64,000 nucleotides of DNA from Candidatus Baldrarchaeota archaeon. GTDB lineage: Archaea > Asgardarchaeota > Baldrarchaeia > Baldrarchaeales > DXJG01. Location of the stretch: NCBI GenBank assembly GCA_019056805.1, contig DXJG01000007.1:1992-65991 (forward strand). The letters are read 5' to 3'. Shown here in pieces: positions 258 to 54,376 of this stretch. The translations under genes and the position numbers were made by a program. Every line of letters begins with the position of its first letter. Position 1 is the stretch's first letter. The notes below the pieces were generated by a model, which saw only the letters and a list, made by a program, of their open reading frames with translations, was not told the origin of the DNA and did not search any database.

Positions 258-3200
258 TTATTGTTTTGAGGGTTTAACTAGACTTTTTTCCATTGCTGCT
301 CGCTTTCTTTTGCGCATAATTACTATAGCTACACCGATTATTGCCACAGCAATTATTACGAGGTACATTAATGGTATTTCTCTTGGTGGTGGTGCTTCTT
401 CTCCTGGTTTACCTATTGTTGGTATCCAGCCAGCCAAGAATTCTGCTAATGAGCTTACTATTGTTTTCTTTTGTTTGCCGGAGTATACTACTACTTCAGG
501 GTCTTCGTAGACGAAGTATCCGTCCCATTTCGGAAATCCTACGCTTAGGAAGTACATGGTACTTTGGAATGTCCATCCGCCAACGCTTGTTTCAGATTCG
601 TAGTCTGTGTACGTTGCAACGAAGGTGCTTAGCGGAATTGTGTGAGTTGAAACGTTGCAAACCATGCTTAGGTTTCCGCCCCAGATGTATGTGTCACCCA
701 TGTTTACCTCTGCAAACTTTAATCCACTAGTGTCTAGTGAAATTCTTGATGCTTCTACAATTTCATCTGGGGTTATTGGTGTTCCATCTTCACTTACTAC
801 TTCCCAGCTTCCACTTGTTTCTGCGTAGATGTAATAGTTGAGTGATAAGCTTAGGTTTTCTAAAACGGCTATGCCCGTTGGTAGGTCTAGATCCCAGTTT
901 CCTATATGTTGGTCTATCTTTATGCGAGCCTCTGTACTATTTGTTGCTGTTGAGTTTTCTACGTAGAAGTGTAGTTTGAAGGATAGTTCTTCAAGTGAAG
1001 CGTCTACCGGGCGTTCTTGGAATGTGCGGAGATCTGTGCCATAAATTTCTTCACCATACCATGCGTAGTAGCTTCTTCCAAACGGGAACATTGTACCATT
1101 AATGTCAAGATATGAAACACCGAATTCTACGCTTTCGTTTATTGGAAGTGTTAACATTCCGGTTTCATTGTAGATGCCAAAGGCTTCTCCGGGAGTAACG
1201 AATATTACATTGCCTACAGCTTCAGGTATGAAGTAATGAGTAGCCTCGTCTTCATCCATGATCAGATTGTCATTTGTATCGTTGTAGATAAATATACCTG
1301 CGTATTCGTATCTAAGATCTACATGGTAGGATTGGAAGGTTTCATTTTCTCCTGTTGAAACCCAGTATGATTGTTGGAAGCCGAACCAGAGCCATGTCCA
1401 AGTGACTTCTTCTTTAACCCAGTCCCAACCTTCTTCTTCAGCCTTTTTGAGGTAGTCTTCCCATGTCATGTTTCTTGCCATTCTTGCAATGTCCCAGTAT
1501 CCTGATTTAGGAGCATTTCTCTCGGTGTCCCAGAGAGTTTCATTTATTATGGCCATCGTCTCTGGTGAAACTGGTGTCATGTTTGTGTAGAACCAGTAGT
1601 ATGTTTCATTCCATCTGTTCCAATAGGTATTGGTGGATGTTCCCATCCAAGCATTTACAATTAATTCATCGCCGGGTATTACTGGGTTTGGATCGTACAC
1701 TATATTAACGTCAAGGCCATTTACTGTTTCATTCCAGCCGAATTCTCCAACATATACCCTCTTAACATAGAATTGATCATCTGTTGTACTTAGATCTCCA
1801 TCTAAGTCTAGTGCACCAGTTGTAGGATCTATTGTCCACTTTCTGTAACCCCAAAGACCCCATTCAGGGGATCCAACAATTACATCCCAAACTTCGTACC
1901 TGTAGGAAACATCGCCCCACCGAAGTTCTTCAAGATGCCAAGTCACGGGGTAACCCCAAGAGAGACGAGCTACCTTGATATGCTCAACATATAGATTTGT
2001 TGTGTAATTTACACCATTTACCGTTATATTGTATATTGGGAATTCATATTCGTAAGAGTAGAGGTCATTATAGTATCTTGGCGGTATAGTGTACCACCAT
2101 TCTGGGTGCAGAAGCCAGTTGATCGGTATTAGATCGTACCATGCACCTGACACTGTGTAAATACGGTAGTAGTCATACATTAGATTTATTGATCTATACT
2201 CGTTTATCCATACTGTTGTATTGTAGGTTTCACCGTTCCATGTGAAGGTTTCTGGTCCAGGATATTCATATCCGCCTAGTTCTACGGTCACTATTCCTAT
2301 AAACTCGTAGTCTTCTAAGCTTTCCAGATCTATTCTGGAACCGTTAAGCAGATACAAAACATAAGTATTGTTTTCCCAGTCATATTCTGGTTCAGGGATA
2401 ACTGTGTAATATATGGTACCACTTACGTTTACTTCAAAAAAGACAACCCTTAGATGACGGGATACATCTAGGAGTGTTCCATTAAACAGAGTAACATTAC
2501 CAGATTCAGTGGTGGAATCGTAGGTGAAATAGTCAACATATAATTTTATTAGGCTTTCTCTATCGTATGATCCCTGGTTTGTCAGATTTCCTATGAATAT
2601 TGCAAATCCTATTTCTTCGATATCCCAACAATCTATTCCAGATACCTTCGTGTATAAGCCTTGTCCCTTTGTAATGCTATAGGTCACACCATCTACGATA
2701 ATGTATCCTGTCGTAGCACCCTCATAATCGTAATGAATAAGGTACAAGGAACCATTTACTAAGGCGTAATCGTCTTCAGGAACTGCTCCACCCTCGCTCT
2801 TTGGCTGCTGTAGGCACCACCATGAAAGCCATTCGTACTCGTCACTTACACCTTCATATGGAAGCTCTACTCTTTCTTCTCCCACTAAGGTGTAATACCA
2901 AGATCTTTTGAACCATTCGGGTACAATTATGGACTTTCCATTGTATTCCCCGACATAATATGCTGATGGATATTCGATGTAGTATCTTTTACCATTTCTT
3001 TCAAAGTAATACATGTACATATAGTCGTAGTCATACCTTACGTAAATCTTTGTTCCGTTTTCAAGTAGAATATAGTATTCCTGTGCTATGTAGTCCCAGT
3101 CTATCCACCCCTTTGTAAGGTTAACCCATGTGGTTCCATTGATAACGGTAAAGTAACCACCAAACTCGACTGGTACTCTGCCGATCTTCTCAACGTTTAA

Positions 3201-6200
3201 ACAATAATTGTAGTCTGCTAACCATATAATTTCTCCATCTAGAGTAATTATGAAGTAGGCTTCTTCAAAAATACTCCACCATGGCGAACTCATATACGTT
3301 GTAATGTTGTAAGTCTCGCCAGTAGTTTCGTCGTAGATTGTTGCATTATATATGAATGCATGGTATGCTTCATATACGTAAATCTTTGTTCCGTTTTCTA
3401 ATATGTAGTAGCGTTTGTATTCGTAGGTTGTTGGATCCCATTCTTCACGTAGCAATCTGTATTCGTATTCGTATCCGTTCCAGAACTTTATTTCTTTTAA
3501 CGGTAGTTTTTCGCCGTTTATTAATATGTAGGGCTTACTTAAGATGAGATATTTCTTGCCATTTGATGTTTCTGCATAGTATCTTGTCTCTGGGTTGGGT
3601 ATGTATACTTCAACGCTTCCATTATTAATGGTATAGACTTTGCTGTATGCCCAGTCTTCTAAAATATGTTCTCCCCATGGTTCAGTATAATCTGGACCAT
3701 ATGTCCAGTTAAGCAAGTTAACACTAAAACTGTATCTTTGGTCATTGGCGTATTCGGTGAAACTCATATTCACTTGAATGAGATACTTTCCATCTTCTGT
3801 GGCGAAAGCACTATAATTGTTTACAATAATATAGGTTTCGTTTACGACTGTGTCTTTGTGATGCCAGTCTAGCCACATATTTATCCATTCACCAGAAGTC
3901 TGGTTGAAAGAGTAGTGTTCCCAATGCCATCCTTCAACTTCTTCCATCGTACCTGTGGTCTCATTCCATATTTCGTACGTACCATACTCGTAGACCTCTT
4001 TGTTAGTTTGATTGTAAACTATTATTTCTGTGGTGTTTTCTCTTAGATTTATTGTTGCAATTATTTCCAAGTTGCTCCATATAGTTTCATTTTCGCTCCA
4101 ATAGTAATTCCAACAGTTGAATCTAACTCTTATTCCATCGACATCGGTTACAAGCTGACTGCCACCTTCCATTTCTACTTCAACTATAAACCATTGGCCA
4201 GGATTAGTCGCAAAATACCAAGTTCCAGAAGTTGCTCCTTCTTGATCTCTAATTCTAACATTAATTACTGGTTTCTCTACGGAAAGTTGATGTGCATTTT
4301 CATATATCCACTCCCAGTCTCTTGGCCATATCCTCCACTGACTACTATATACGTAGTAGTCTATCCATAGGTTTGGCCCAGGATTTCCTATGAACTTCCC
4401 TTCAAATTCTAATATGATTTTATTATCTTCAACGGTTTTTGTGCCGCTTATTAGCTCGTAGAGCCGTAATTCAGAGGGTACCTCCTCGATTTTCCAACCT
4501 TCCACATAGTCAATGTATTGTCCCCATTCATCCTCTTTTAGTGTTTCATTCCAGTATTGGTAGAGCAGATAATAGTTAAAAGTACCGTCTGTATTATTGT
4601 AGAAGAGAAGCAAATTGGGTGAAGCCCAGTCTGTTGTTTCTACCTCATAATATTCTCCTGTTGTTTCGTCCCAGTAAACTCTTGTTACATTTATTTCTTT
4701 AGCAATAGTTACCCATTGCTCCATTAGATATGGTCCAAACACCCACTCCCTTGTTATTATTGTGGCATTTGGATCCCAAACATATGTGTCTAGGGTTTCA
4801 TTGTATACCCAGCCTCCATGATATACCCTGTATTCTTCATGCCACCCCGTCACATTAACATAGGTCCTCAAGCTATATGGAAGACGAATTACTATGCTGG
4901 CGTTTCTAAAATCAGCATCAGATATCCCGGTTATGTTTAGTCTTATGATAAATGTTTGGTTGATTCCAACACTACGGATTAATTCATAGTCTGTGTTTAA
5001 TATTTCTGCTAGGTACGTACCACCATACATCATGTCAAAGTATACTGCTACTTCGTCCCATGGACCGCCTATGGCGACCTCTTTGTATAAGCTTAGTTCA
5101 CTGTCCCAATAATAGTACGAGGATGTACTAATGTAATTGCTTTCATTGTCAAAGATGTTTAGATAGACATTGTATATTCCTTTTGGAGTTAGGTCGTTAA
5201 ACTGGCCTGTTATTACGAAGTTATATTGATCTGGGGTTTCAATTAGGGTTGTTTGACTTTGATTCAATGTAAAGAACTCACCCGTAGTACTGCCGTATGG
5301 GTCTGAATAGTTATAAATAGAGGTCCATGTAGACCAATCATTCGATGAGTAATCGTAGTAAATTGATAGATAGGCGGATATATTTACGGCCCACATATTC
5401 CAAGATAGATCTATTGTTCCAAGTTCGGTGCCTTCTTCAAATAGGAGTTTGGGAATTGTTATGTTTATCATTACAGGTGCGTTTAATTCAATCCATGTGT
5501 CTGGTGTAACCAAATACCAGGTTTCGGTTGTTGTGTTGTAGCAGAATATGTCGTAATGTGCTTTGGGGCCAAACTCCCAGCTTATGTCTCGGTATGTCCA
5601 GTTCCATCCCCATGTTTCGTTGTATAGTCTCCACCATACTCTTATCTCGGGTGGTAAATTCATTACTGATGGGTCGACATAAATTGCGTCTTCAGTTTCA
5701 TAGTATAGTAGCTCACTGAAGAACGGTATGATATGCAAGGTATACGTTGTATCAGCTAGCCAATTTCCTATGATTATTTTGAATCCTACAAAGTTTAAGC
5801 TGGCATTTCTTGCTCTTTCTATAGCGTCTCTTGCGTCAAAAGGCACTGAGCATTCTGGGGTCCCAAAGTCATATGACTGATAGGGTTCAACAGGGTTAAG
5901 TTCATCATTATAAAAGTCTATAAGTACTGATTCGATTGTCGCTCCGTTGTCTATGGAGGCATTAAATCCAGTTAAAAATTCAATTGCTCTTAGTTCTGCT
6001 ATTATTAAGATTTCTACAGTACCGCTATCCGCGCTTGTGTTGGAGAATGTTATAAATAGTTCTCCTTCGATGAAAGAAGCATTAAAGAAGGCTAAAACTC
6101 CTAATTCCTCATTGTAGAATATATATACATTTGGCTCTCCTTCTTCTCCTTCTTCTGGTGGTGGATATTCTGCTCCGCCTGCTTCTACTCTAAAGTGGTG

Positions 6201-6710
6201 CTCTGTGTTTTCAGTCCAGTCTCTTATGGTTACCGTAAACTTAACACAAGTTGCTCCAATGTCAGTTGCTCTTACAGCTATTTCTTCACCGTTTATACTT
6301 ATGGTTGTTCGATCTGTGCCTATGTTGGTGACTGCATAAGTATCTAAAACGTTAAATGCATCATCACAAAGATGTATACTTAATGAATCAATTATGGCGC
6401 CGCCGTCGATGCTTAGTGACAGTTCTTGTAGTCCCCTTACACCGTCAAGTGTGACGTAAATTAATAAATCTACAGTTTCACTGTCTTTTGAACTATTTTG
6501 AAAAGTGATTTCAAGCCCGTTTTCAATTAATGTATAATTGAAATAGTCTAGTGGTTTTCCTTCAGCATAATAGTCTACCATTATTACGGGGCTTTCTCCT
6601 TCCTGTTTTGGTATCATTGCCGAACTTAAGTTAATACTCGAAAGAACTATTAGTACACAAAGTATCACTGAAAAAAGAGGCTTAAAACCTATTTTATTTA
6701 CCATTTTCAT
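258..6710 (-). CDS. Giant cell-surface protein (2150 aa), signal peptide plus C-terminal transmembrane anchor, aromatic-rich and probably N-glycosylated
   Basis: Uninterrupted 6.45-kb ORF. N-terminus MKMVNKIGFKPLFSVILCVLIVLSSINLSSA looks like a signal peptide; C-terminus has one hydrophobic helix (LMYLVIIAVAIIGVAIVIM) followed by RKRKR. Very rich in Y/W/T/N/E with many N-x-S/T sequons and internal repeats (e.g. YILENGTKIYV twice). Confidence 0.85.
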   Translation of the reverse strand: MKMVNKIGFKPLFSVILCVLIVLSSINLSSAMIPKQEGESPVIMVDYYAEGKPLDYFNYTLIENGLEITFQNSSKDSETVDLLIYVTLDGVRGLQELSLSIDGGAIIDSLSIHLCDDAFNVLDTYAVTNIGTDRTTISINGEEIAVRATDIGATCVKFTVTIRDWTENTEHHFRVEAGGAEYPPPEEGEEGEPNVYIFYNEELGVLAFFNASFIEGELFITFSNTSADSGTVEILIIAELRAIEFLTGFNASIDNGATIESVLIDFYNDELNPVEPYQSYDFGTPECSVPFDARDAIERARNASLNFVGFKIIIGNWLADTTYTLHIIPFFSELLYYETEDAIYVDPSVMNLPPEIRVWWRLYNETWGWNWTYRDISWEFGPKAHYDIFCYNTTTETWYLVTPDTWIELNAPVMINITIPKLLFEEGTELGTIDLSWNMWAVNISAYLSIYYDYSSNDWSTWTSIYNYSDPYGSTTGEFFTLNQSQTTLIETPDQYNFVITGQFNDLTPKGIYNVYLNIFDNESNYISTSSYYYWDSELSLYKEVAIGGPWDEVAVYFDMMYGGTYLAEILNTDYELIRSVGINQTFIIRLNITGISDADFRNASIVIRLPYSLRTYVNVTGWHEEYRVYHGGWVYNETLDTYVWDPNATIITREWVFGPYLMEQWVTIAKEINVTRVYWDETTGEYYEVETTDWASPNLLLFYNNTDGTFNYYLLYQYWNETLKEDEWGQYIDYVEGWKIEEVPSELRLYELISGTKTVEDNKIILEFEGKFIGNPGPNLWIDYYVYSSQWRIWPRDWEWIYENAHQLSVEKPVINVRIRDQEGATSGTWYFATNPGQWFIVEVEMEGGSQLVTDVDGIRVRFNCWNYYWSENETIWSNLEIIATINLRENTTEIIVYNQTNKEVYEYGTYEIWNETTGTMEEVEGWHWEHYSFNQTSGEWINMWLDWHHKDTVVNETYIIVNNYSAFATEDGKYLIQVNMSFTEYANDQRYSFSVNLLNWTYGPDYTEPWGEHILEDWAYSKVYTINNGSVEVYIPNPETRYYAETSNGKKYLILSKPYILINGEKLPLKEIKFWNGYEYEYRLLREEWDPTTYEYKRYYILENGTKIYVYEAYHAFIYNATIYDETTGETYNITTYMSSPWWSIFEEAYFIITLDGEIIWLADYNYCLNVEKIGRVPVEFGGYFTVINGTTWVNLTKGWIDWDYIAQEYYILLENGTKIYVRYDYDYMYMYYFERNGKRYYIEYPSAYYVGEYNGKSIIVPEWFKRSWYYTLVGEERVELPYEGVSDEYEWLSWWCLQQPKSEGGAVPEDDYALVNGSLYLIHYDYEGATTGYIIVDGVTYSITKGQGLYTKVSGIDCWDIEEIGFAIFIGNLTNQGSYDRESLIKLYVDYFTYDSTTESGNVTLFNGTLLDVSRHLRVVFFEVNVSGTIYYTVIPEPEYDWENNTYVLYLLNGSRIDLESLEDYEFIGIVTVELGGYEYPGPETFTWNGETYNTTVWINEYRSINLMYDYYRIYTVSGAWYDLIPINWLLHPEWWYTIPPRYYNDLYSYEYEFPIYNITVNGVNYTTNLYVEHIKVARLSWGYPVTWHLEELRWGDVSYRYEVWDVIVGSPEWGLWGYRKWTIDPTTGALDLDGDLSTTDDQFYVKRVYVGEFGWNETVNGLDVNIVYDPNPVIPGDELIVNAWMGTSTNTYWNRWNETYYWFYTNMTPVSPETMAIINETLWDTERNAPKSGYWDIARMARNMTWEDYLKKAEEEGWDWVKEEVTWTWLWFGFQQSYWVSTGENETFQSYHVDLRYEYAGIFIYNDTNDNLIMDEDEATHYFIPEAVGNVIFVTPGEAFGIYNETGMLTLPINESVEFGVSYLDINGTMFPFGRSYYAWYGEEIYGTDLRTFQERPVDASLEELSFKLHFYVENSTATNSTEARIKIDQHIGNWDLDLPTGIAVLENLSLSLNYYIYAETSGSWEVVSEDGTPITPDEIVEASRISLDTSGLKFAEVNMGDTYIWGGNLSMVCNVSTHTIPLSTFVATYTDYESETSVGGWTFQSTMYFLSVGFPKWDGYFVYEDPEVVVYSGKQKKTIVSSLAEFLAGWIPTIGKPGEEAPPPREIPLMYLVIIAVAIIGVAIVIMRKRKRAAMEKSLVKPSKQ

Positions 6711-6993
6711 TACTTTTCCTCCAAAGTCATAACATTTATTATTACCTATTGTTGTATTATCTACTACTATAATTTAATTCTGGTAATGAAAATGTACTAG
6801 TTTGTATATATAAAAATTTTTGCAACGCGATGTTTTAGTAACATGTTATAACAAAAAGTTATCCTAGTAGTCAATGTAAGTCCGAAAACCACTCAAGAAA
6901 TTAATAAATAATAATTCACAATTTACTGTTCATAAATCGAAACCTTATTATAATATGTATTACCACAAGTCTATATCTTAGTGAAAAATAAGT

Positions 6994-7021
6994 CAATTCA
7001 CTTGAAATCCCGAGTGAATTG
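6994..7021. promoter_or_regulatory. Inverted repeat (9-bp arms CAATTCACT / AGTGAATTG, 10-nt spacer) ending about 10 nt before the start codon of the 7032 gene
   Basis: Read directly from the sequence; lies in the AT-rich divergent intergenic region between the 258..6710 and 7032..9194 genes. Confidence 0.3.
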
Positions 7022-7031
7022 AGGGATAAAA

Positions 7032-9194
7032 ATGAATGAAATATTAATTTCAGCTGTTTTGATCCTTTTACCTAATATTTTAATAGCTTTGATTGTCCTT
7101 TTGATGAGATATACTCGTTTTAAAGAAATTGCATTGCGTACAGGAATAGCCTTCTCTGCGTTTTGGCTAATATATTGTATTGGCTCAAGTATAGTTTTCA
7201 ATTTGATCGGAGTTGAACCGAACTTAGTTTATTCTTCCCGAGATTTTTCAATATCAAACTTAAAGACTCTTGCAACTTATGTAGTATCTCTAGCAATATA
7301 CTCTCTCACTTTGACAATCACTTACCCGGTTTTCATGTTCCCATTTGTTTTCTTCCTTGCTCCTATAATAGCCGTTTTAATTCTACTTTACGCCGTTAGA
7401 GGAAGAGGAATAAAAGAAATAACTTTTTGGATCGATTTAAAACCCAAAAGATTGATGGGGTGGGATGAAGAAAAAGAGGTTTTGAAACTTTTAATAGCTC
7501 TTCTACCTGTTTCTCTATATTTCTTAACATCATTACTACGAATATTGAAATACGAGGAAGATCCGCTTTCGGTTGGTAGTACCTTGTTGGGCTGGGTACT
7601 TGAAATTTATATGCTTTTTCTTTTATCTTTCATAGTGGCGGTGAATCTTCTTTATACTTCTCGTGTTTATCACGGAAACAGGTTTGTAGGTGAAACTATT
7701 AGAAGAAATACCTTCAATAATCTCTTATCTATAAGTATTGTGCTTTCGTCCGTAAGTCTTATACTTTTTGTACAAATTTTCAAGGGAATCATCTACGTTT
7801 TCATATACTTCTCACTATATTACATTGCGATAACTATTATTTTCCTTTCATTCTTCAAAGTAATGGAACCAACTTCCGTGTATATCTTTGCTAAAATTCT
7901 AACTTTTATGAGAGATGAAAATAAATTCCAAAGAATATTTGAAAAAAGAACGCTTGTACTAGGCATTATAGTTGGTATAGTGGTTACTTTAGCTTCTCTT
8001 TTCTGCACATACGCTTTTATATCGGTTTATTGGAGCTACGTGAATATAGATCTAGATGCCCTTTTAGGTGAATGTTCTTTAGATAGCAGCCCCTCCCTGG
8101 AAATTTTGGAAATTTTAAACATACTTATTTCTTTAGGATCTTTACAAAGATTTTTTGAAATAGCAATTATAATGTTTCTTATCTATGCGCTCAGAAATAT
8201 GGTTAAAATAAAATTTTTCATAGCTGGCATATATGTAGGCATATTTAAGGTATTTGCTGACTATCCCCTTTTACAGCGCGCAACTAAAGCTTGGACTACA
8301 ACTGTATTTTCAAGTGCGAACATTGGTTTCGTCAACATTTTAGTTCCAAGGTTTGCCTATCTAGGATTGACAACTTCTTATCTGGGTTCATCTGTCTATC
8401 AATTTATAGTCATACCTATACTTCTCCTTAAACTTTTAGCAACACTCTTAGTTTTTACTGTTTTAGTTTACTTAAAATTTGGTAAACTTGTTCAGTTTAT
8501 CGATGTTGAAGCTGGACATCAAATAAAATATATATGTGAAGTTGAACCTGACTATATTACTCCTAACTCGTTGATAAAACTGAAAATAGCAAAAATATTT
8601 GAAGAAAAAATTCCAGAAGATCTTTTACAGATCGTAGAATTCTTTAAGACAAAAACATACACTTTTCAAGAATTAAAAGAAAAATTAGGCATGCCTGATG
8701 AAAAATTAAAGAAAATTCTCCGATATCTGCATGAAAATTACATTATTGACATTTACGACTGCGAATTTAAAATAGTTACACCAGCACCAGTGATAGAAGG
8801 AATATATATTGTGAATACAGACGGTATAGCTCTGTACAGTAAGTCATTTGGTGAAGTAAAAGTCGAACCTTTATTGATTTCAGGTATGCTTTCAGCAATA
8901 ACTAGCTTCGTTAAAGAAACAACAAGAAGTCAACAATATTTGCAAGCTATTGATCACGGTGATGTCGTTCTCATGATAGAATATGGAGATGGATTTTTCG
9001 TCACCCTTTTGGCGAACAGAGAAACCCCTGAAATTCGTATGAAATTAAGGGAATTTGTTAGGCGATTCCAAGAAAAATACGGTGAAATTCTCAAACGATG
9101 GAGTGGAGATCCCGGTGAATTTGAAAATGTTGAAAAATTAGTCAATGAAGTTTTTGAAATCACATCTACTAGTGAAGAAATAACCACTACCTAG
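7032..9194 (+). CDS. Polytopic membrane protein with C-terminal cytoplasmic domain (putative roadblock/longin-like alpha/beta domain)
   Basis: First ~500 aa contain many hydrophobic helices; C-terminal ~220 aa are hydrophilic with pattern GIYIVNTDGIALYSKSFG...LISGMLSAITSF...FFVTLLAN...KRWSGDPGEF, homologous to the C-terminus of the 48963..51935 protein. Confidence 0.8.
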   Translation: MNEILISAVLILLPNILIALIVLLMRYTRFKEIALRTGIAFSAFWLIYCIGSSIVFNLIGVEPNLVYSSRDFSISNLKTLATYVVSLAIYSLTLTITYPVFMFPFVFFLAPIIAVLILLYAVRGRGIKEITFWIDLKPKRLMGWDEEKEVLKLLIALLPVSLYFLTSLLRILKYEEDPLSVGSTLLGWVLEIYMLFLLSFIVAVNLLYTSRVYHGNRFVGETIRRNTFNNLLSISIVLSSVSLILFVQIFKGIIYVFIYFSLYYIAITIIFLSFFKVMEPTSVYIFAKILTFMRDENKFQRIFEKRTLVLGIIVGIVVTLASLFCTYAFISVYWSYVNIDLDALLGECSLDSSPSLEILEILNILISLGSLQRFFEIAIIMFLIYALRNMVKIKFFIAGIYVGIFKVFADYPLLQRATKAWTTTVFSSANIGFVNILVPRFAYLGLTTSYLGSSVYQFIVIPILLLKLLATLLVFTVLVYLKFGKLVQFIDVEAGHQIKYICEVEPDYITPNSLIKLKIAKIFEEKIPEDLLQIVEFFKTKTYTFQELKEKLGMPDEKLKKILRYLHENYIIDIYDCEFKIVTPAPVIEGIYIVNTDGIALYSKSFGEVKVEPLLISGMLSAITSFVKETTRSQQYLQAIDHGDVVLMIEYGDGFFVTLLANRETPEIRMKLREFVRRFQEKYGEILKRWSGDPGEFENVEKLVNEVFEITSTSEEITTT

Positions 9195-9333
9195 CTTAAA
9201 TCAACACATATTATTTTGTTAAGTTTTTGTAGAAATTTGGTGTCATCTTATTTCAAAAGATTTATAAGACATTTGAAGGATGTTGATTCCTCTCCTTTTG
9301 TTAAAAGGCGAGAAAATTTGGAGTTGAGGCATT

Positions 9334-10464
9334 TTGGGTTTTAAAGAATTAAATATTGGAGACAATGTTCTATCAGCAATTTACACGATGGGCTATGAAG
9401 AACCATCACCTATACAAAAAGAGACAATACCATTGATTTTATCTGGAAGAGACGTAATAGGACAGGCGAGGAGTGGAAGTGGAAAAACAGCGGCTTTCGG
9501 TATACCTTTAGTAGAAATGACAGACCTAGCGGATCATAATGTTCAAGCTTTAATACTTACACCAACAAGAGAACTGGCAGAGCAAGTATCGAGGGAAATA
9601 GCTAACATCGGAAGAAAAAGAAGAGTAAAAGTATATGCCATTTATGGTGGCGTACCCATTGGACCTCAAATGGAAAAATTACGGAGAGGAATACATATAC
9701 TTGTTGGGACTCCTGGACGTTTACTTGATCATTTACGGAGAAGGACATTAAATCTTCGAAATGTTAGAGTGGTTGTTTTAGATGAGGCTGATAGAATGCT
9801 TGATATGGGCTTTATAGACGATATTTCAACAATTCTTTTCCATGCAAAAAACAGAAAACAAACGTTATTATTTTCTGCGACTATGCCTTACGAGGTAATA
9901 GAATTATCAAGAAAGTATATGAAGAACCCTATAGCTGTAAAAATTTCTCGAGACGAGTTAATTGTTGAACATATAGACCAATATTATGTTGAGACAAGTC
10001 GAAAAAATAAGTTAGAAGTTTTAATGAGAATCTTAGATGAACATCATGGGAAGAAGATCATGGTTTTCTGTGCAACAAAGAGAAAGACAACGCATGTCGC
10101 TTGGAAACTGAGAAAATCAAGATACTCTACACTTTGTTTGAATGGAGATATGACTCAAGGTCAAAGAAACTGGTCAATGGCAGTCTTTAGAGAACCAGGT
10201 AGCAAAATACTTGTAGCGACCGACGTAGCTTCCAGAGGAATAGATGTACCCACGACAGATTTGGTGATAAACTTCGATATTCCAAGGAATTTGAAAGATT
10301 ATGTTCATAGAATAGGTCGAGCAGGAAGATTTGACAGAAGAGGAAAATCTATAACACTAATAACACAAGAAGATCACTCATTCTTAAGAAGAATACTTAG
10401 ATCTAACAAAATGGAAAAATACTATTTCAGCGGTAAACGTAAATTTGATAAACGTAGATTTTAA
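9334..10464 (+). CDS. DEAD-box ATP-dependent RNA helicase
   Basis: Motif I GQARSGSGKT, Ia PTRELA, II VLDEADRMLDMGF (DEAD), III SAT, VI HRIGRAGR. TTG start per ORF track. Confidence 0.93.
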   Translation: MGFKELNIGDNVLSAIYTMGYEEPSPIQKETIPLILSGRDVIGQARSGSGKTAAFGIPLVEMTDLADHNVQALILTPTRELAEQVSREIANIGRKRRVKVYAIYGGVPIGPQMEKLRRGIHILVGTPGRLLDHLRRRTLNLRNVRVVVLDEADRMLDMGFIDDISTILFHAKNRKQTLLFSATMPYEVIELSRKYMKNPIAVKISRDELIVEHIDQYYVETSRKNKLEVLMRILDEHHGKKIMVFCATKRKTTHVAWKLRKSRYSTLCLNGDMTQGQRNWSMAVFREPGSKILVATDVASRGIDVPTTDLVINFDIPRNLKDYVHRIGRAGRFDRRGKSITLITQEDHSFLRRILRSNKMEKYYFSGKRKFDKRRF

Positions 10465-10781: not shown

Positions 10782-13700
10782 GTGTTTCACCCTGATTTTA
10801 ACAAGAAGGCTTCTCCAACAACTAAATTAATATCTATGCTTCTGCTTTTAGCTCTTCTCTTAACCTACTGCTACTATCCAGCGACATTGTTTACGAATAC
10901 AAACTATCCGCAAACTACCTCCCTACTAATTTATAGAGACAATGAAACCACTGATAGCTTGACAAAGGTATCTTACGATGACGAAAATTTACAAGAATGG
11001 TTAAGTTCACTTAGAAGCTTAGAGGTTCCAGCAGGATCTCCAATGGATATTTATCCCGTTAGGGAGAGCATAGCTGTTGATTTATGGCCGGGAATCTATT
11101 TTCCGGAGGATGTTGAAATTTATAAGCCTCTTATAGAGGATCTTCATGCTCAAGGAATAAAATATATGATTTATAGGAATTTTTACATGGTTACTGATGT
11201 AAACTACACTTACCTATGTGAGTATTATCCTGGTTTCAATGCATCGAATGCTGGTTTTATAGATTTAGATGGAAACCCGTATATAGTAGATTATGATCCC
11301 TACGGTACACCAATATTTAGAGCTTCAACAAATAGACCTTATTGGCAAAGTTTTCTCATAAATTCAACGAAATTAGCTATCGATGCTGGTGTAGATGCTG
11401 TTGTTTTTGATGTTGGATTTGGACATTATCCTCCAAATGAGTTAAATTTTGATCCAGATAGCATTAAAGATTTTAGAGAATACCTAGCAGAAAAATATAC
11501 TTCAGAAGAATTGGCTTCAAAATTTAATATTTCTGACATTTCTACATTCGATTTTGGGCAGTATCTTAGAGATCTAGGATATAATGCTAGTAGTTTAAGG
11601 GAAGCTTTAACGCAAGGAACATCATTGGGATACTATGCTGATTTGTTATGGTCGGAGTGGTGTGAATTTCATCTTAAAGTTTTGGTGGAGTTTTATAAGA
11701 GACTTTATACCGAGGTAAAAGAATATGCTCAAAGTAAAGGACGAGATTTCTATGTTTTCTCCAATATTTATCATGGTCTTGATCCCCAGTACAATATACT
11801 CTATTTGATTAATTATGTGGATGGTATCTATGCAGAAATTTTCTTTGATGATTTACAGTATCCAAATAGAACTCCAGCAACAGTTTATAAGGTAGCTTAT
11901 AGTTTAGGGAAACATTATATCCCTATGACTTCTCCATCCAACGATTCGGAACTATATCCATTATATATTGCAGAGCTTTTTGCATGTGGCAGCTGGACGG
12001 GTGGAGCAGGAAACTATACTCCATATTTCCTTTTTGTTAACTCGCATCCTGAACTATTCAGTAAGGAACAGGACGGTGAAATAGGACTTGTTTACTCTTT
12101 AGCTTCAAGTGAAAACTATAGTTCATTTGAGGGTGCCTTTTACCTTCTCTCTGATACCCAGCGTAGTTTTGATGTTATTGTTTTTGGAGATAATAAGTGG
12201 TTTAATGAAAGCTTGACATTAAATGACTTGTTAAAGTATAGAGCAATTTTACTACCTAATACTGGTTATCTTACAGATGAACAAGTTGAATTGCTTCTGA
12301 ACTATGCTGAACAAGGTGGTATTCTAATAGGCATTGGAAGTGTTGGAACACGAAATGAAACCGGGGAAATTGTCAACTCAGAGACTCGAACAACGTTTAT
12401 CAGCCTTTTTAATGGTAGCATAGTTTCTTATGGAAGTGGAACAGTTATTTCATGGACCAGTGATATAGCTTTACAGTACTTATTGCAGAGAAATACAACA
12501 CTTTTAGAAGAATTTGAAAATAGATTAAGTGAAGTGTTTTCTCCCGAAATCATAACAAGCTTTACCCACAATACCACTATATTTCAATACTGGGATCCTG
12601 AATCTAATGCTATGATCTTTCATTTCTTAAATCGTGAATATGACTCCAAAAACGATGTAATAACACCTCAACACGATGTGAGCTTTAAGTTTACTTTAAG
12701 ACCTGAATTGGACGGTCTTCCTCTTGAAATAAGATTTTATTCACCGAATGACTATTTCGAAGGAATAGAGTTGACTTACAGCTCAGATCCTAATGGATAT
12801 GTGGAAGTAACAATTCCGAAAGTACATATATGGGGTATTTTGCGTGTGGAAGCTAAGAAAAAAGCAGTACAAGAAGATTTAGTAATTAACAGTCCAACCG
12901 TGCTTAAGGATCAAGTTATAGTTTTGAACGGTAACCTATTAGTTAACTCAAAGTTGACATTGGAGAATGTTATTTTAAAGATGAATAGTTCCCTTGACAG
13001 GGTGTTTCGAATAGAAGTTTATGAAGGAGGAGAACTTGTTATCAAAGACTCTGTCATTACTGCGTATGATCCAAAGTATCACTATTATGTTAAGGTGAAT
13101 AAGGGCAGTCGGTTCTATATGGAGAATAGTGAGTTAAGCCATGCTGGTGTTTGGGGACCTATGTATGCTGGAGGGCTGTGGATAAACACGGATGATGTCA
13201 TAATCTTAAACTGTACAATACATAGTAATTATGACTATGGAATACATGTATATAATGCTTCATACGTCGAGATAATAAACTGTAAAATTTACGGCAACAA
13301 TATAGGAATATACTTGCTCAATTCATCTTTCGTAACCATCTCTAAATGTAACATTTACGATAATTCAATTGGTATCTACGAAAAGGGAAGCTACTATTCT
13401 ACAATCAAACACAGTCATATCTCAAATAATTTATACTGGGGAATAACAATTTGGGACTCTCTATTCCCATTAATATCTGATAGTACCATTCATGATAGTG
13501 TCCATGATGGAATTATCATTTGGTACTCGTTTTTCGCAAAAATTTACAACTGCAAAGCTTACAGTAATGAAAATGGTTTTAACATACGATACACGCCTTT
13601 AGTGACAGTTTCAAGTAGCGAAGTGTATAACAATGAGGAGGCAGGCTTGTTTTTCTTCCATGTTGAGCTTCTGTATGGTCATCCGTTGGCAATTCTTGAT

Positions 13701-15104
13701 TCTCTTGGCACTATAGTTGCTAACAGTTTTTACAATAACACATATGGCATATACATGTTGGAAAGTGAAAAAACTAAGATTGAAGCTTGCAATATACTTG
13801 ATAACACGTGGGGAATATATGTTGAAGGAACTACTCAATGCACTTTCATTTTCCGTTCAAACTTCATTGATAACACCGATCACATTTATGTTGATGAAAA
13901 GGCTCAAGGAAAAATTCAATTTGACAACATAACAATTGGAAACTACTGGGATGACCACAGTGGAGAAGATGCTGATGGTGATGGTATTATTGATACACCT
14001 TATACTATTAACTCGGTAGATAAAGACTATAAGCCGCTAGCTAATCCAGTTACTATCGTAAAAATAGAAGATATATATGGGCCTATGATCACGGACATTC
14101 AAGTCGTGAAAGAAGAGGGAAATGAAAATTACAATTTAACAATATCTGTTAATGTCACTGATGATTCTTGGTTAAGTTGGGTTTTAATGAACGGAACAAT
14201 ACATAATTTGCCGGGTGGAGAAAACTATCCTTTGATGCGTATAATGGTATATTTCTACGATCCCTTTGCTACTATCTTAGGCTATGATAGGTCAAACTTC
14301 AATCTTCTTCCATCAGAAGGATATCCTCTCAAAACATGTACAGCTTCAACTCAGTTCACTTTTCCTCTTAGCTATAAGCCTCATTTCAAGATTTTTGCTG
14401 TGGATACCTATGGGAACTGGGCTGAAAATGACTCTACAACTCCTCATATAACTGGTATATTTTGGGATCCAAGTAGTCCTGAATATGATGAAGAGGTAAC
14501 TGTGTTTGTTCATGTATTTGATCAAAGCAGGATATCTGAATGTTTACTAAGTTACTTTAATGGAACAGAGTGGAATAACGTTTCAATGATATATAATGAG
14601 GAAACAAATGCAATGGTTGGAAGCATTCCAAAACAACCATATGGAGTTACAGTAGAATTCAAGGTAATTGTTAAAGATACTATGAACAATATAGCTGTAA
14701 GTGCAACTTATTCTTACACTGTTAAAGATACTACTCCGCCAATATTGAGAATAATTCAGCCAAGTGGCGGAGAAACAATTTCTAATGATGTTAATGTTAC
14801 TTGGGAGTCCTATGATGAAGGTTCGGGGTTAAAAGAATTCAAAATTTATTTAAATGGAACATTAAAAGCTACTTTGCCCCCTACAACATCCTGTTATCTT
14901 CTATCTAACTTAACACCAGGTTCTTACAATGTTACAGTTGAAGCTGTGGATAATGCTGGCAACCGTGCAACTGCATCAATAGTTTTCAAGTATGTCTCTG
15001 AAGAAGGTGGATTACCTAACTCTCTCATACTCATGGGAGGAACAATAGCCGGTGTTGTAATTATAGTTACAGTGTTTTTAATGAGAAAGAAACTAAAAGA
15101 TTGA
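10782..15104 (+). CDS. Large surface-anchored protein (1440 aa) with parallel beta-helix (PbH1/NosD-like) repeats and Ig-like domains
   Basis: N-terminal hydrophobic segment; central run of repeats of the type IINCKIYGNNIGIYLLNSSFVTISKCNIYDNSIGIY typical of right-handed beta-helix proteins; Ig-like region near the C-terminus; C-terminal TM anchor LILMGGTIAGVVIIVTVFLMRKKLKD. N-terminal ~600 aa may be a glycoside-hydrolase-like domain (weak). Confidence 0.85.
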   Translation: MFHPDFNKKASPTTKLISMLLLLALLLTYCYYPATLFTNTNYPQTTSLLIYRDNETTDSLTKVSYDDENLQEWLSSLRSLEVPAGSPMDIYPVRESIAVDLWPGIYFPEDVEIYKPLIEDLHAQGIKYMIYRNFYMVTDVNYTYLCEYYPGFNASNAGFIDLDGNPYIVDYDPYGTPIFRASTNRPYWQSFLINSTKLAIDAGVDAVVFDVGFGHYPPNELNFDPDSIKDFREYLAEKYTSEELASKFNISDISTFDFGQYLRDLGYNASSLREALTQGTSLGYYADLLWSEWCEFHLKVLVEFYKRLYTEVKEYAQSKGRDFYVFSNIYHGLDPQYNILYLINYVDGIYAEIFFDDLQYPNRTPATVYKVAYSLGKHYIPMTSPSNDSELYPLYIAELFACGSWTGGAGNYTPYFLFVNSHPELFSKEQDGEIGLVYSLASSENYSSFEGAFYLLSDTQRSFDVIVFGDNKWFNESLTLNDLLKYRAILLPNTGYLTDEQVELLLNYAEQGGILIGIGSVGTRNETGEIVNSETRTTFISLFNGSIVSYGSGTVISWTSDIALQYLLQRNTTLLEEFENRLSEVFSPEIITSFTHNTTIFQYWDPESNAMIFHFLNREYDSKNDVITPQHDVSFKFTLRPELDGLPLEIRFYSPNDYFEGIELTYSSDPNGYVEVTIPKVHIWGILRVEAKKKAVQEDLVINSPTVLKDQVIVLNGNLLVNSKLTLENVILKMNSSLDRVFRIEVYEGGELVIKDSVITAYDPKYHYYVKVNKGSRFYMENSELSHAGVWGPMYAGGLWINTDDVIILNCTIHSNYDYGIHVYNASYVEIINCKIYGNNIGIYLLNSSFVTISKCNIYDNSIGIYEKGSYYSTIKHSHISNNLYWGITIWDSLFPLISDSTIHDSVHDGIIIWYSFFAKIYNCKAYSNENGFNIRYTPLVTVSSSEVYNNEEAGLFFFHVELLYGHPLAILDSLGTIVANSFYNNTYGIYMLESEKTKIEACNILDNTWGIYVEGTTQCTFIFRSNFIDNTDHIYVDEKAQGKIQFDNITIGNYWDDHSGEDADGDGIIDTPYTINSVDKDYKPLANPVTIVKIEDIYGPMITDIQVVKEEGNENYNLTISVNVTDDSWLSWVLMNGTIHNLPGGENYPLMRIMVYFYDPFATILGYDRSNFNLLPSEGYPLKTCTASTQFTFPLSYKPHFKIFAVDTYGNWAENDSTTPHITGIFWDPSSPEYDEEVTVFVHVFDQSRISECLLSYFNGTEWNNVSMIYNEETNAMVGSIPKQPYGVTVEFKVIVKDTMNNIAVSATYSYTVKDTTPPILRIIQPSGGETISNDVNVTWESYDEGSGLKEFKIYLNGTLKATLPPTTSCYLLSNLTPGSYNVTVEAVDNAGNRATASIVFKYVSEEGGLPNSLILMGGTIAGVVIIVTVFLMRKKLKD

Positions 15105-18875: not shown

Positions 18876-19071
18876 ATCTTACGATAATGTATCTACAATA
18901 TCAGAACTTGTGGATATTATTTTCACATTTATTATAATGTTGGATTAGGGTTTAGTAAGGCATATATAGTTAAGTGTTTCATCGTTCTTTTACCATGAAT
19001 TAATTTTGAATTTAAATTATGATTTAGTTTGTAGGGAAGATGATGGGCTACGTTATTAGGAGGAGAAAGTT

Positions 19072-48962: not shown

Positions 48963-51935
48963 CTAGGCTTCCGAGGTATTTTCTGAAATTTTTGATACTT
49001 CAGTTTCATGTTTGGAATGTTGCGGGTATATTATGAGTAGTTCTTTATTTTCCTTTAACTTTAGCACCGTTTTGTATAATTTTATTCTCTCTGATTTTGG
49101 TAATTTTTCAAGTTCTTTTGCTAATTTTGGCATGTAAAAGAATTGGTCTTGATTTGAAATTTTTTGAATGATTTCCTTTAAGGAGCTAGGTATTTTTCTA
49201 CTGTCTTCTATCTTGTACATTGCCAAATTTTCTTTTCCAAAGATCTCATATATGATCTCCTCTGTGCCATTAAAAACTCCTAAGTCTCCTCTCCAATTAT
49301 TAAAAACATCTTTGAATTTTTCTTCGAATTTTTGTGTAATTTCTCTAATTATTTCTTTATTTTTAAGTTTCTCAGTTGAAATAGCAATTGTATATGTGTG
49401 CTCTCCAGAGGAACATGTTAAAAATCTTGGCTCTGGATCTCCATATGATATCTCATCAAGATATCCTACTTTACCGTTACTAAGTTCTGTGTAAAATGTT
49501 TGAACAGCTTGTATGAACCCAGCTATTAATTCAGGACTTCTTTCCTCGCCACCAAAAATTTTAACGTCTCTTACTGGAAGCCCGCTCCTTTTCTCAACTA
49601 ATAATATCTCTTCTATCGATGAAATGGAAGATAAGTGTTCTATTTCATTAATCAATTTTGCGATTGATTTTTTTCTGTGCACAAAGTAGACAGATGAAGA
49701 AAAGAAGAAAAGAAATAAGAAAATAAGTTCTTTGAAATATTGTTTAACATTTTCTTTCACTTTTTCCAGTATAGGAGCTAAGGATAAGTATGGTGTTATT
49801 TCTATGGTTTTTTCCTCCGATTGTGAAGGTAAATATTCTCTACTTCCATTAAAGTACACTATTATTGTTAGGTTTCCAGCTGTTTGCATTTTAAAATTGT
49901 AAAAAGCTTTGCCCTCGTTATTAGTTACAAGCGTTTCATTCCACTCTCTAGTTGTACCGTTTAAGGAAGTGAATTTTAACATTAAAATTAATTCTTTACC
50001 TGGGACCCCTGTTCCGTTAATATCTGTTAGTGTTATTTCAATTCCTATGTTCTTCCCGACAGAGGCTTTTGAAGGAGCTTCAAGAATTATCCTTGTTGGA
50101 ATAGGATAAATAAGATTTAGGGTTATATTTACATGAGTTTCTTCATAATATTCTTTTATTACGTATATTGAAACGTTATACATTCCTTCTGTTAATCCAT
50201 TTGTACCAACTATGCCCTCGTAACAGTTTGTTATGTTATTATAAGTGAATTGAATTGTTCCTTTTATCCATTTTCCGTAAATATTTGCATCTGTTATATT
50301 CTCTCCGGTTATGCCATCGACACATCTAACTTTAATGGTTATATTTTCTCCTAAAAGATAATATTCGCTTAGATTTTCAACTATAATCTTTATGGTGTAG
50401 AAAACGGAAAATGTACTTATTCTATACCCTATTTCCGTTCCATTGTAGAATAGTATTGCTACTTTGTATTCTCCTTTTTCCACGTTTTGAGGTATCCATG
50501 TGAAATTACTGCCTTCACTTATGTTCTTCGTTTCTTCATGAATTTTCACGTCAGTTACGTTGTATATTGCCATGGTTAAGTTTCCATTTGAAACTGTTAC
50601 TGTTGATTTCCACTGTACAGAAAATTCTATTTTGTGGTTTATCGTAACATTTGCTGGGTGGTCTAAACTTTTTATATAGTTTATTCCTTGAAAAATTAGA
50701 AACCATGGATCACTCATATTTACTGTTATTAAGTTTTCCTGTCTATCTATTACGTTATTTGTATTGTTTTGCAATGTCCAGTCTGATGGAACATGGAATT
50801 TCGTGCTACAATTCAAATAGCCGCTGGGAAAAGTGTAAGTTGAGTTAACATACCATGTAACATTATCATAGTTTGTGTTAATGAAACAAGATGTGTGTAA
50901 CAATTCTTCTTTTAAATGAGTAGTTTCACATGTGATATTAAATTTAAGTAACCAACTTGCCGTAACATTTAAAATTACGGGATCTTCAGTGATAAGATTC
51001 GTAAAAGTCCATGTTCCATTTTCATTAACTGATATATTATTTACTTTTAATTCATAGTCTTGAAAACTAGTTAATAACGGGGAAAGATGGACATATTGCA
51101 AAAAATAGTCTACATCTTCAGGTATGAAACTATTAGAATCAGAGTCGTAGTAGTATGCATATCCTTCATCAACTCCGTCGGTTGAAGCTGCTGGTGTAGA
51201 ATCATTATATGCCAGCCAACATACGTCTTCACTTGCCGTTAAGGCTCGAGCATATAGGTGCAAGAAGAACGTGTTATCGTAGGTTTTTGATGTGTCAAGT
51301 AAAAGGGGTGGATCGATTGTTATGTTTAATTGTAAGTATTGTGTTCCACTAATACTCATAATTGTGGTGTTGCTGATGAGCGTGGTATCTGGGTACGGTA
51401 GAATCTGCTCTTGAATTATTGTTCCTGTCGCATTCATTATAGCCCAGTCAATTGTTATTCCAGATATCACAGAGATGTTTAACTTTACTTCTAAACTCGT
51501 AAGATAACATATGCGAGGAACTCGAAAAGACATTACTCTTGGATAATCTCCAATAGAAATATTTCCCAAGGGAAGAGGGTCTTCAGGGTGTTGCATTTCT
51601 ATTTCTTTTGTTAGATTTTGCGGCTCTATATTTGTGAAGTTTAAAGCTATCTTTTCTGTGTTAAACCCGTGGGTTACAATATTTAGCGGGCTATAAAATG
51701 CGTCATTTTTTGCATCGAGAGACCTAACATGTGTTGTTTCATTATTTATCCAGTTTTTGATTTGTATTGCTGTTAGGTTTGAATGAATAATTCTATCACT
51801 AGACAAGGTAAAATTTGAAGTACATTGGGAAGGAAATGTTGAATTGGCTAAAACCTGTGGAGGGCTCATTATTGCGAAAAATATTAAAATTACTACAAGA
51901 AGTGTTAAAGTCTTCAGTTTTTCCACCAGAGTCAC
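48963..51935 (-). CDS. Large surface protein (990 aa): signal peptide, ~700-aa extracellular region, single TM, ~240-aa cytoplasmic tail with roadblock/longin-like domain
   Basis: N-terminal MTLVEKLKTLTLLVVILIFFAIMSPPQVLA; hydrophobic helix IFLFLFFFSSSVYFV followed by HRKK at ~aa 725-745; tail IEEILLVEKRSGLPVRDVKIFGG...LIAGFIQAVQTF...NNWRGDLGVF is homologous to the C-terminus of the 7032..9194 protein. Confidence 0.85.
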   Translation of the reverse strand: MTLVEKLKTLTLLVVILIFFAIMSPPQVLANSTFPSQCTSNFTLSSDRIIHSNLTAIQIKNWINNETTHVRSLDAKNDAFYSPLNIVTHGFNTEKIALNFTNIEPQNLTKEIEMQHPEDPLPLGNISIGDYPRVMSFRVPRICYLTSLEVKLNISVISGITIDWAIMNATGTIIQEQILPYPDTTLISNTTIMSISGTQYLQLNITIDPPLLLDTSKTYDNTFFLHLYARALTASEDVCWLAYNDSTPAASTDGVDEGYAYYYDSDSNSFIPEDVDYFLQYVHLSPLLTSFQDYELKVNNISVNENGTWTFTNLITEDPVILNVTASWLLKFNITCETTHLKEELLHTSCFINTNYDNVTWYVNSTYTFPSGYLNCSTKFHVPSDWTLQNNTNNVIDRQENLITVNMSDPWFLIFQGINYIKSLDHPANVTINHKIEFSVQWKSTVTVSNGNLTMAIYNVTDVKIHEETKNISEGSNFTWIPQNVEKGEYKVAILFYNGTEIGYRISTFSVFYTIKIIVENLSEYYLLGENITIKVRCVDGITGENITDANIYGKWIKGTIQFTYNNITNCYEGIVGTNGLTEGMYNVSIYVIKEYYEETHVNITLNLIYPIPTRIILEAPSKASVGKNIGIEITLTDINGTGVPGKELILMLKFTSLNGTTREWNETLVTNNEGKAFYNFKMQTAGNLTIIVYFNGSREYLPSQSEEKTIEITPYLSLAPILEKVKENVKQYFKELIFLFLFFFSSSVYFVHRKKSIAKLINEIEHLSSISSIEEILLVEKRSGLPVRDVKIFGGEERSPELIAGFIQAVQTFYTELSNGKVGYLDEISYGDPEPRFLTCSSGEHTYTIAISTEKLKNKEIIREITQKFEEKFKDVFNNWRGDLGVFNGTEEIIYEIFGKENLAMYKIEDSRKIPSSLKEIIQKISNQDQFFYMPKLAKELEKLPKSERIKLYKTVLKLKENKELLIIYPQHSKHETEVSKISENTSEA

Positions 51936-54246: not shown

Positions 54247-54376
54247 TTTAAACAACCTTTAATGCTATTTCAAAACTTGAATTTAATTTATTTACTTCTA
54301 AATAGAGTATATACTTTTCTATTAGAAACATATTATTACAATTAAAAATGTAGACTTCATTTGCAGAATTTCAACT

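Follow-up and report, generated by a model that had tools for sequence, protein, structure and literature searches.

Two membrane proteins of entirely different build, encoded within one stretch of archaeal DNA, raise the question of whether they carry the same cytoplasmic domain and, if so, what that domain might do at the membrane. The stretch, hereafter the window, is 64,000 nucleotides long and comes from a Candidatus Baldrarchaeota archaeon (assembly GCA_019056805.1, contig DXJG01000007.1, positions 1,992 to 65,991). Open reading frame (ORF) and hydropathy analysis identified the first protein, p1, as a polytopic membrane protein of 720 residues with a cytoplasmic C-terminal tail (7032..9194, + strand) and, together with Pfam searches, the second, p2, as a type-I surface protein of 990 residues (48963..51935, - strand). 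A preliminary description of the window had aligned the two C-terminal regions by eye and proposed a common intracellular module. Judged by their sequences, the two segments are copies of one homologous protein domain of ~125 residues, and the family to which it belongs is large and essentially Asgard-archaeal.

BLASTP of the copy 1 region against the copy 2 region gave E=5e-13, with 29% identity and 52% positives over 109 residues, and when full-length p1 was compared with full-length p2 the shared domain was the sole matching segment (E=4e-11). With phmmer, either copy retrieved from all six-frame ORFs of the window the reciprocal copy alone, at ~1e-11. The Smith-Waterman score of the two copies was 134, far beyond the scores of 2000 shuffles (30.1 +/- 4.9, maximum 57, z=21). 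All four comparisons concurred, and the homology suggested by eye is borne out. The window has a G+C content of 34.7%, and K, E and I abound in both tails, naturally raising the possibility of a chance or compositional similarity between two helical, Lys/Glu-rich tails of an AT-rich genome; the z-score of 21, the reciprocal and unique phmmer matches at 1e-11, the thousands of homologues that share the conserved columns and the concordance of the predicted folds exclude it.

Copy 1 (p1 residues 588-710) spans 8793..9161 on the + strand, as supported by pairwise comparison, phmmer, shuffle statistics, AlphaFold2 (AF2) modelling and Foldseek, and copy 2 (p2 residues 773-904) spans 49224..49619 on the - strand. 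The peptides quoted for them earlier were found letter for letter in the ORF products, while the spans needed adjustment: copy 1 had been placed at 8799-9194, and the ~48966-49613 given for copy 2 included a C-terminal tail of ~85 residues that copy 1 lacks. Since these ~85 residues follow the domain in p2, copy 2 occupies a juxtamembrane position and does not end the protein, and the C-terminal placement holds for p1 only. The tail motif W-x-G-D-x-G-x-F was present in both copies, as WSGDPGEF in copy 1 (p1 residues 690-697, 9099..9122, + strand) and as WRGDLGVF in copy 2 (p2 residues 881-888, 49272..49295, - strand), and a motif check against the family alignment showed that W-x-G-x4-F recurs in homologues. 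With a score far above the shuffled controls and a tail that recurs, neither of the outcomes named in the preliminary description as refuting the relationship was seen.

Outside the shared domain p1 and p2 proved as unrelated as first described, one having a 12-helix body and the other a Big-like ectodomain with one transmembrane (TM) helix. The hydropathy model of p1 comprises ~12 TM segments, p1 contains no N-x-S/T sequon, and in a crude 12-TM model the C-terminus falls on the side of the membrane that is richer in K/R (21 versus 10). In p2, hydrophobic segments were found at residues 1-32 (signal or anchor) and 734-752; the latter, the single TM helix (49680..49736, - strand, from hydropathy), is followed directly by HRKK. 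The ectodomain of ~700 residues shows Big_3_5, Big_1 and Filamin similarity over residues 620-714, which are Ig-like, and 37 sequons precede the TM helix, against 2 after it. The signal or anchor, the sequon asymmetry and the TM-HRKK junction are together characteristic of type-I surface proteins that are glycosylated and have a cytoplasmic tail. The longin/roadblock fold, to which we return below, is known from cytoplasmic proteins only. On account of this occurrence, the sequon asymmetry and HRKK of p2 and the K/R asymmetry of p1, a membrane-proximal position of the shared domain on the cytoplasmic side is supported by the predicted topology. The intracellular location proposed in the preliminary description thus stands; the output or regulatory role that it attached to the module is something we can only infer.

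To which fold does the domain belong? AF2 modelling of copy 1 (5 sequences) gave a model with pLDDT 70 and the order b-b-a-b-b-a-a, and modelling of the whole cytoplasmic tail of p2 (residues 753-990, 11 sequences) gave one with pLDDT 84.6 and pTM 0.79, in which a juxtamembrane helix is followed by b-b-a-b-b-b-a-a and a compact winged-helix-like module. The strands of the p2 model lie at model residues 22-29, 35-40, 76-79, 85-91 and 95-101 and its helices at 49-66, 109-126 and 133-147, which is the longin order beta-beta-alpha-beta-beta-beta-alpha-alpha; the lower-confidence p1 model is concordant. In the predicted structure the central helix lies on one side of a five-stranded antiparallel sheet and two C-terminal helices, the longin arrangement, lie on the opposite side, and W-x-G-x4-F is located in the alpha2-alpha3 connection (in copy 1 by homology with the p2 model). 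Foldseek with the copy 1 model returned Roadblock, longin, LAMTOR and MglB structures at probability 1.0, and the p2 model agreed. The similarity to solved longin domains was significant and extended over 117-123 aligned residues, compared with 90-106 for roadblocks. The domain is predicted to adopt a longin/roadblock fold, on which two independent AF2 models agree.

Sequence comparison pointed, at low scores, in the same direction. Alignment of the family with a PDB-sequence alignment of TRAPPC1/Bet5/TRAPPC4 by hhalign gave P=3e-4 and a probability of 40%, with 87 columns in register from beta1 to alpha2; DYNLRB1 scored more weakly than TRAPP (P=0.009). When 30 members were scanned singly, the only recurrent Pfam matches were Fuz_longin_1 (3 of 30, best E 0.0022) and Sybindin (2 of 30, best E 0.018), all sub-threshold. 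Robl_LC7 was not recurrent among these members and reached 19.6 bits, against a gathering score of 23, in homologue P0063. In the Pfam scans of the window proteins neither copy matched a longin or Robl_LC7 model, and no membership test against the curated longin and roadblock models of Pfam and NCBIfam reached the profile threshold. A search of the family profile against PDB sequences gave nothing significant, with Trs23 at E 0.67; a match to SBDS at E 0.08 in that search was judged spurious. The domain thus represents a family of its own within the longin/roadblock superfold, divergent but nearest to the longin branch. Its architecture differs from that of longin SNAREs (domain, SNARE motif, C-terminal anchor), the TM segment preceding the domain or the domain being C-terminal, and no SNARE family appeared in any Pfam scan of window proteins, domains or homologues.

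The relatives so named bear on function. The most recurrent sub-threshold Pfam match in the family, Fuz_longin_1 (PF19036), is the first longin of Fuzzy, Mon1 and HPS1, the Rab-contacting domain of the tri-longin Rab guanine nucleotide exchange factors (GEFs) Mon1-Ccz1, CPLANE and BLOC-3. Those proteins carry an array of three longins, whereas the domain described here is single and membrane-tethered and has its own W-x-G-x4-F motif. In Sybindin (PF04099; TRAPPC1/Bet5 and TRAPPC4/Trs23), longins of the type that forms the Rab1/Ypt1-binding core of TRAPP, the helix (L)xYG-MLFS-I-SF resembles LISG-FLSA-I-SF of the family; TRAPP subunits, however, are soluble and assemble with Bet3-type subunits, while the present domain is a module of integral membrane proteins. 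Roadblock/LC7 proteins (PF03259; MglB, LAMTOR2/3, the C-terminal domains of Rag proteins and Asgard Roadblock proteins; PDB 7yh1, 9jq8, 9jue and 7f8m) have a helix ahead of beta1, as does the p2 model (model residues 6-18; p2 residues 758-770, 49626-49664, - strand). That helix lies directly after the TM segment and may be a mere juxtamembrane linker, the p1 model lacks it, and the family differs from Roadblock/LC7 in its two C-terminal helices. GTPase contacts have been described for Mon1/Fuzzy LD1, Bet5/Trs23, MglB, LAMTOR and SRX, and in TRAPP, Mon1-Ccz1, Ragulator and MglB the platforms to which GTPases bind are formed by longin/roadblock dimers (PMC10933270).

These relationships suggest a model. 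The domain would pair through its conserved central helix and sheet edge, as other longin/roadblock domains do, and the resulting dimer would be anchored as a docking platform at the cytoplasmic membrane face. By binding a partner from the cytoplasm, most likely one of the many Rab-, Rag- or Arf-like small GTPases of these archaea, it would couple the state of the attached membrane protein to the GTPase switch or to fused downstream modules, namely a winged helix, a TPR-like helical region or a KaiC-like ATPase. That state might be ligand or contact sensing by the large glycosylated ectodomain in p2, and substrate flux through a transporter-like body in p1 and in fusions to major facilitator superfamily (MFS) transporters. 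The choice of a small GTPase as likeliest client rests on the closest relatives in fold and weak sequence signal, all of which contact GTPases; the best-conserved element of the family, the central helix, is the dimer or partner interface in roadblock and longin platforms, a pattern that is suggestive only. By analogy, then, we tentatively propose a membrane-tethered, dimeric docking or regulatory platform with a small GTPase as its likeliest client, a proposal to which we give slightly less than even confidence. The stronger version, that longin-ended Asgard receptors and transceptors directly recruit or switch Rab-, Rag- or Arf-like GTPases at the plasma membrane, seems to us doubtful.

How widespread is the domain, and which of its residues are retained? 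Word-indexed homologue searches returned 4 matches for copy 1, none for copy 2 and 10 with the profile; being nearly blind to the family, they made an exhaustive profile search necessary. Across 1.84 billion cluster representatives, that search yielded 3,879 proteins at E<=1e-3; 594 of these reached E<=1e-10, and 34 of them E<=1e-30. Members with named sources came from Hodarchaeales/Hodarchaeota, Lokiarchaeum ossiferum, Harpocratesius repetitus, Lokiarchaeia, Thor-, Hel- and Atabeyarchaeia and 'Promethearchaeota', and the sole hints of the family outside the Asgards were one Thermofilum-labelled and one Methanomassiliicoccales-labelled metagenome-assembled genome (MAG). Most members are named 'hypothetical protein', the other names reflecting an MFS transporter, a KaiC-like ATPase or TPR. 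Pfam and NCBIfam scans of p1, p2, the isolated domains and ~40 homologues placed no model at threshold on the domain, and since these collections leave the members 'hypothetical', a profile model of the family's own is warranted.

Alignment of 30 diverse homologues with less than 45% mutual identity revealed near-invariant columns at G17, L34, G71, E99, L106, W109, G111 and F116. The W, G and F of W-x-G-x4-F were each conserved in at least 90% of these sequences, so the motif is a genuine hallmark of the family, and the central helix was strongly conserved and rich in small residues (D-P-x-L-I-S-G-F-L-S-A-I-x-S-F). The location of these residues also bears on whether the domain could be a cytoplasmic small-molecule sensor of GAF/PAS-like type, in which metabolite binding gates the transporter or receptor. 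Longins have been grouped with the PAS/GAF-like superfold (PMC4917890), Asgard NPRL2-like longins have been linked to nutrient sensing (10.1101/2020.10.19.343400), and a C-terminal site on MFS transporters and on the 12-TM protein is typical of regulatory ligand-binding domains. However, no ligand-binding longin or roadblock domain was found among the structural neighbours, and the conserved residues fall in the central helix and the helix-helix connection, a distribution that is not pocket-like as far as secondary-structure maps allow. Such a sensor is highly improbable.

The architectures of the 149 best homologues fell into a few types. A large N-terminal region followed by one TM helix and the domain was the most frequent (56 of 149), and four or more TM helices followed by the domain came next (46 of 149); a short N-terminus with a TM helix and the domain (11), two or three copies of the domain (9) and other arrangements (4) were rarer, and 23, fragments among them, had no upstream TM helix. 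The median distance from the last TM helix to the domain was 45 residues. Polytopic hosts included some MFS transporters and others of p1's unannotated 12-TM family, and the domain was the extreme C-terminus in 45 of the 46 polytopic members. Receptor-type members continued beyond it with one of three tails: a short winged-helix-like one, as in p2, a module of ~271 residues, or a KaiC/RecA-like ATPase domain, which begins ~23 residues after the longin-like domain (P0068, P0071, P0080 and P0093). The same domain thus stands behind many unrelated ectodomains, on MFS transporters and beside KaiC-like ATPases, in keeping with the earlier idea of a portable module.

The ~271-residue C-terminal module is common to ~27 of the top homologues (P0053, P0055, P0056, P0059, P0081 and others). 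Its winged-helix-like opening part is followed by helical repeats, rich in Lys and Glu, which on visual inspection resemble TPR or MIT domains; the JGI label of one protein that carries it is TPR, and no Pfam model reached threshold on it. Giant multi-copy proteins with two to three domains and at most one detected TM helix (P0042, P0063, P0069, P0101, P0121, P0128 and P0153) formed a further group; in P0042 and P0063, CARDB-like Ig domains and, at the C-terminus, DUF5915 were matched as well, and one multi-copy cluster contains the Methanomassiliicoccales-labelled MAG.

We inspected the gene neighbourhoods of ten loci, including those of p1 and p2. Small GTPase genes lay within ~7 kb at four of the ten and were absent from the other six. 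At the p2 locus a RagA-like gene is 1.4 kb away on the same strand, with two opposite-strand genes between; the other three are a Helarchaeota contig (L008), a soil-metagenome contig (L011) and a Harpocratesius locus (L013), where an Arf/Ras/Roc-type gene lies 0.9 kb upstream on the same strand. No conserved neighbour was found across the ten loci, except a second KaiC-like ATPase beside the KaiC-fusion type. At two KaiC-fusion loci (L010 and L012) the fusion gene is preceded by a gene for an aldehyde:ferredoxin oxidoreductase, and its 3' end is abutted by this stand-alone KaiC-like ATPase gene, which is read from the opposite strand; at the Atabeyarchaeia KaiC-fusion locus a gene for 1468 residues, a length equal to that of the receptor-type P0059, stands just before the oxidoreductase.

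The Helarchaeota locus (contig Ga0366833_1021125, 1-9548) is the most informative of these. Members of the family or a sister family are encoded at 3-1040, 3362-5635 (P0051, receptor-type) and 8784-9548, together with Ras/Rab-like GTPase genes at 7404-7937 (- strand) and 8226-8774 (+ strand). The 8784-9548 product is a soluble protein of 254 residues whose N-terminal domain matched the family profile in hhalign with a probability of 96.6% (E 7e-10) and reached 23.9 bits on Fuz_longin_1, for which the cut-off is 26.1. Its gene starts 10 bp past a Ras/Rab-like GTPase gene, in an apparent operon. Although a single case, this locus connects the family, through homology, with a longin whose partner is very probably a GTPase.

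At the same locus a Vps4-like AAA ATPase gene (6197-7354) adjoins the cluster of family members, and this neighbour bears on a different role, that of an adaptor for sorting or anchoring, which would connect the host proteins to the cytoskeleton, ESCRT or coat-like machinery and control their placement on protrusions or vesicles. The analogues of such an adaptor would be the longins of AP sigma/mu and COPI zeta/delta, the SNARE longins and profilin, and the conserved tail of receptor-type members is helical and TPR/MIT-like, both by eye and according to one source annotation. Yet the Vps4-like neighbour is a single case and the MIT-like reading of the tail was made by eye; SNARE, coat and actin-binding signatures were not detected, and the fold matches that an adaptor would predict score no higher than those to GTPase platforms. 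By these analogies an adaptor role is improbable.

Several observations weigh against a GTPase client. The fold also serves SNARE regulation, coat subunits, profilin-actin binding and dynein light chains, and all sequence links to named longin families stay below the family thresholds. The motif W-x-G-x4-F may be purely structural. No small-GTPase fusion occurred among the 150 best homologues, in which a P-loop motif scan gave KaiC-like Walker A sites only, although other Asgard longin/roadblock families do show GTPase fusions (PMC10933270; 10.1101/2020.10.19.343400). GTPase genes at four of ten loci compare with about three expected from a background of ~1 gene per 50 kb in these genomes, which is our own rough estimate, so there is no real enrichment. 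The fusion partners, a KaiC-like ATPase, a winged helix and a TPR-like tail, fit GTPase-independent signalling equally well.

Part of this evidence points to a dimerisation or clustering module that works independently of GTPases, one that would only join two receptor or transporter chains and relay this event to the winged helix, the TPR-like tail or the KaiC-like ATPase, comparable to juxtamembrane dimerisers of prokaryotic signalling proteins. Almost every known example of the fold forms dimers (PMC10933270), conservation is highest in the small-residue-rich central helix, fusions among the top 150 recur to KaiC-like ATPase, winged-helix and helical-repeat modules and never to GTPases, and the neighbourhoods are without clear GTPase enrichment. 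A relay of this kind, however, has no downstream target in the 45 of 46 polytopic members in which the domain comes last; for p1-like proteins and MFS fusions, the action of the domain must be directed at a different molecule or at the transporter itself. The GTPase-contacting longins are, moreover, the closest relatives of the domain in sequence and fold. We therefore consider a pure dimeriser rather unlikely, and retain, tentatively, the docking platform with a GTPase client.

How would such a platform compare with known ones? The SRX domain of SR-alpha binds the membrane-anchored GTPase SR-beta. In this system, as in SLC38A9-Ragulator-Rag on lysosomes, the eukaryotic platform is a separate subunit, and eukaryotic platforms are recruited by lipid anchors or a partner protein, whereas here platform and receptor or transporter would share one polypeptide chain. 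Small GTPases and longin/roadblock proteins each number in the dozens in Asgard archaea, and where and on what they act matters for models of eukaryogenesis. In Lokiarchaeum, 41 longin-like and 38 roadblock domains have been counted (PMC4917890, PMC10933270), and 130 asCOGs of the Roadblock/LC7 superfamily as well as NPRL2-like longins fused to two-component domains have been described (10.1101/2020.10.19.343400). The present family resembles these catalogued expansions in organisms, superfold and domain shuffling, while the published fusions involve GTPases, TRAPPC3 and two-component domains. Published commentary has stressed that a link to membranes is missing in the Asgard longins known so far (PMC4917890), and Asgard proteins tested in human cells showed no membrane localisation (PMC10933270). 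In the literature that we searched, no Asgard longin fused to a transmembrane receptor or transporter is described; the asCOG tables and Klinger et al. 2016 lay outside this search and may list the family. The domain family is real and abundant, and is a variant within the known longin/roadblock world rather than something categorically new.

Its members are abundant and concrete candidates for a link between the cell surface and GTPase or signalling machinery. If the proposed coupling of receptor, longin and GTPase is true, it would be a single-polypeptide forerunner of the transporter-Ragulator-Rag or receptor-GEF arrangements, and the Asgard GTPase repertoire would be wired to the cell surface and not to internal organelles. 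Members occur in the cultured Lokiarchaeum ossiferum, which makes the idea testable.

The host proteins have further features of their own. The 12-TM body of p1 (7032-8600, + strand) and its orthologues, which are 700-760 residues long and identical in architecture, constitute a conserved Asgard membrane-protein family with invariant or near-invariant W144, E147, K152, P159, S161-L162-Y163, G187-W188 and E191. No Pfam or NCBIfam model matched the body in scans of p1 and its orthologues, and comparison of the p1-family profile with PDB sequences revealed no known family for it. A scan of a genome collection with p1 found one relative, in a Candidatus Baldrarchaeota MAG, at 78% identity. Between the last TM helix and the domain, a putative winged-helix-like linker (p1 residues 525-581, 8604..8774, + strand) may be recognised from the pattern TYTFQELKEKLGMPDEKLKKILRYLHENYIIDIYD. 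The equivalent region of orthologues gave weak, non-significant matches to HTH_45 (E 0.014, P0014) and DprA_WH (P0012), and the sole PDB match of the p1-family profile, the winged-helix protein eS25, was likewise non-significant (E 0.5). In p2, the AF2 model places a winged-helix-like module after copy 2 (p2 residues 906-969, 49029..49220, - strand), with the order b-a-b-a-a-b and block pLDDT values of 84-96. It had no Pfam match, and p1 has no counterpart at that position; an equivalent segment opens the conserved ~271-residue tail of receptor-type homologues.

The window encodes a further longin-like candidate near p2. A protein of 454 residues (54377-55741, - strand) combines a soluble N-terminal region of ~190 residues, which resembles a folliculin/DENN-type longin, with a polytopic C-terminal half; its Pfam matches to Folliculin (E 0.048) and DENND11 (E 0.071) are both sub-threshold. 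With it the window would contain, 1.4-3.8 kb from p2, another type of membrane-anchored longin-like protein, unrelated to the first. A Gtr1/RagA-type GTPase of 308 residues (53329-54255, - strand) is encoded 121 bp downstream of the gene for the 454-residue protein, in the same orientation, and the two genes are possibly co-transcribed.

Elsewhere, a V4R-domain protein (30955-31653, - strand), of the superfamily that includes TRAPPC3/Bet3, scored 30.0 bits against a cut-off of 31, and a MoxR-type AAA+ domain is fused to a VWA domain at 24059-26398 (- strand). A small MoaD/ThiS-like ubiquitin-fold ORF occupies 19072-19392 (+ strand); the next phmmer match after the reciprocal copy, at 19060-19392 with E ~0.5, fell on this ORF and was rejected as a further copy of the domain. 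The window also encodes CDC48 and several giant, sequon-rich surface proteins, and its contig is present in JGI and Logan metagenomes as well. Together with the RagA-type GTPase, the V4R protein and the Baldrarchaeota relative of p1, these genes mark the window as Asgard DNA. Three giant proteins are without the longin-like domain: one of 2150 residues (258-6710, - strand), sequon-rich and with zero Pfam matches, which ends in a TM helix and a short basic tail; one of 1440 residues (10782-15104, + strand) with NosD/beta-helix and Big_7 matches; and one of 1638 residues (37526-42442, + strand) with invasin/Big_1 matches.

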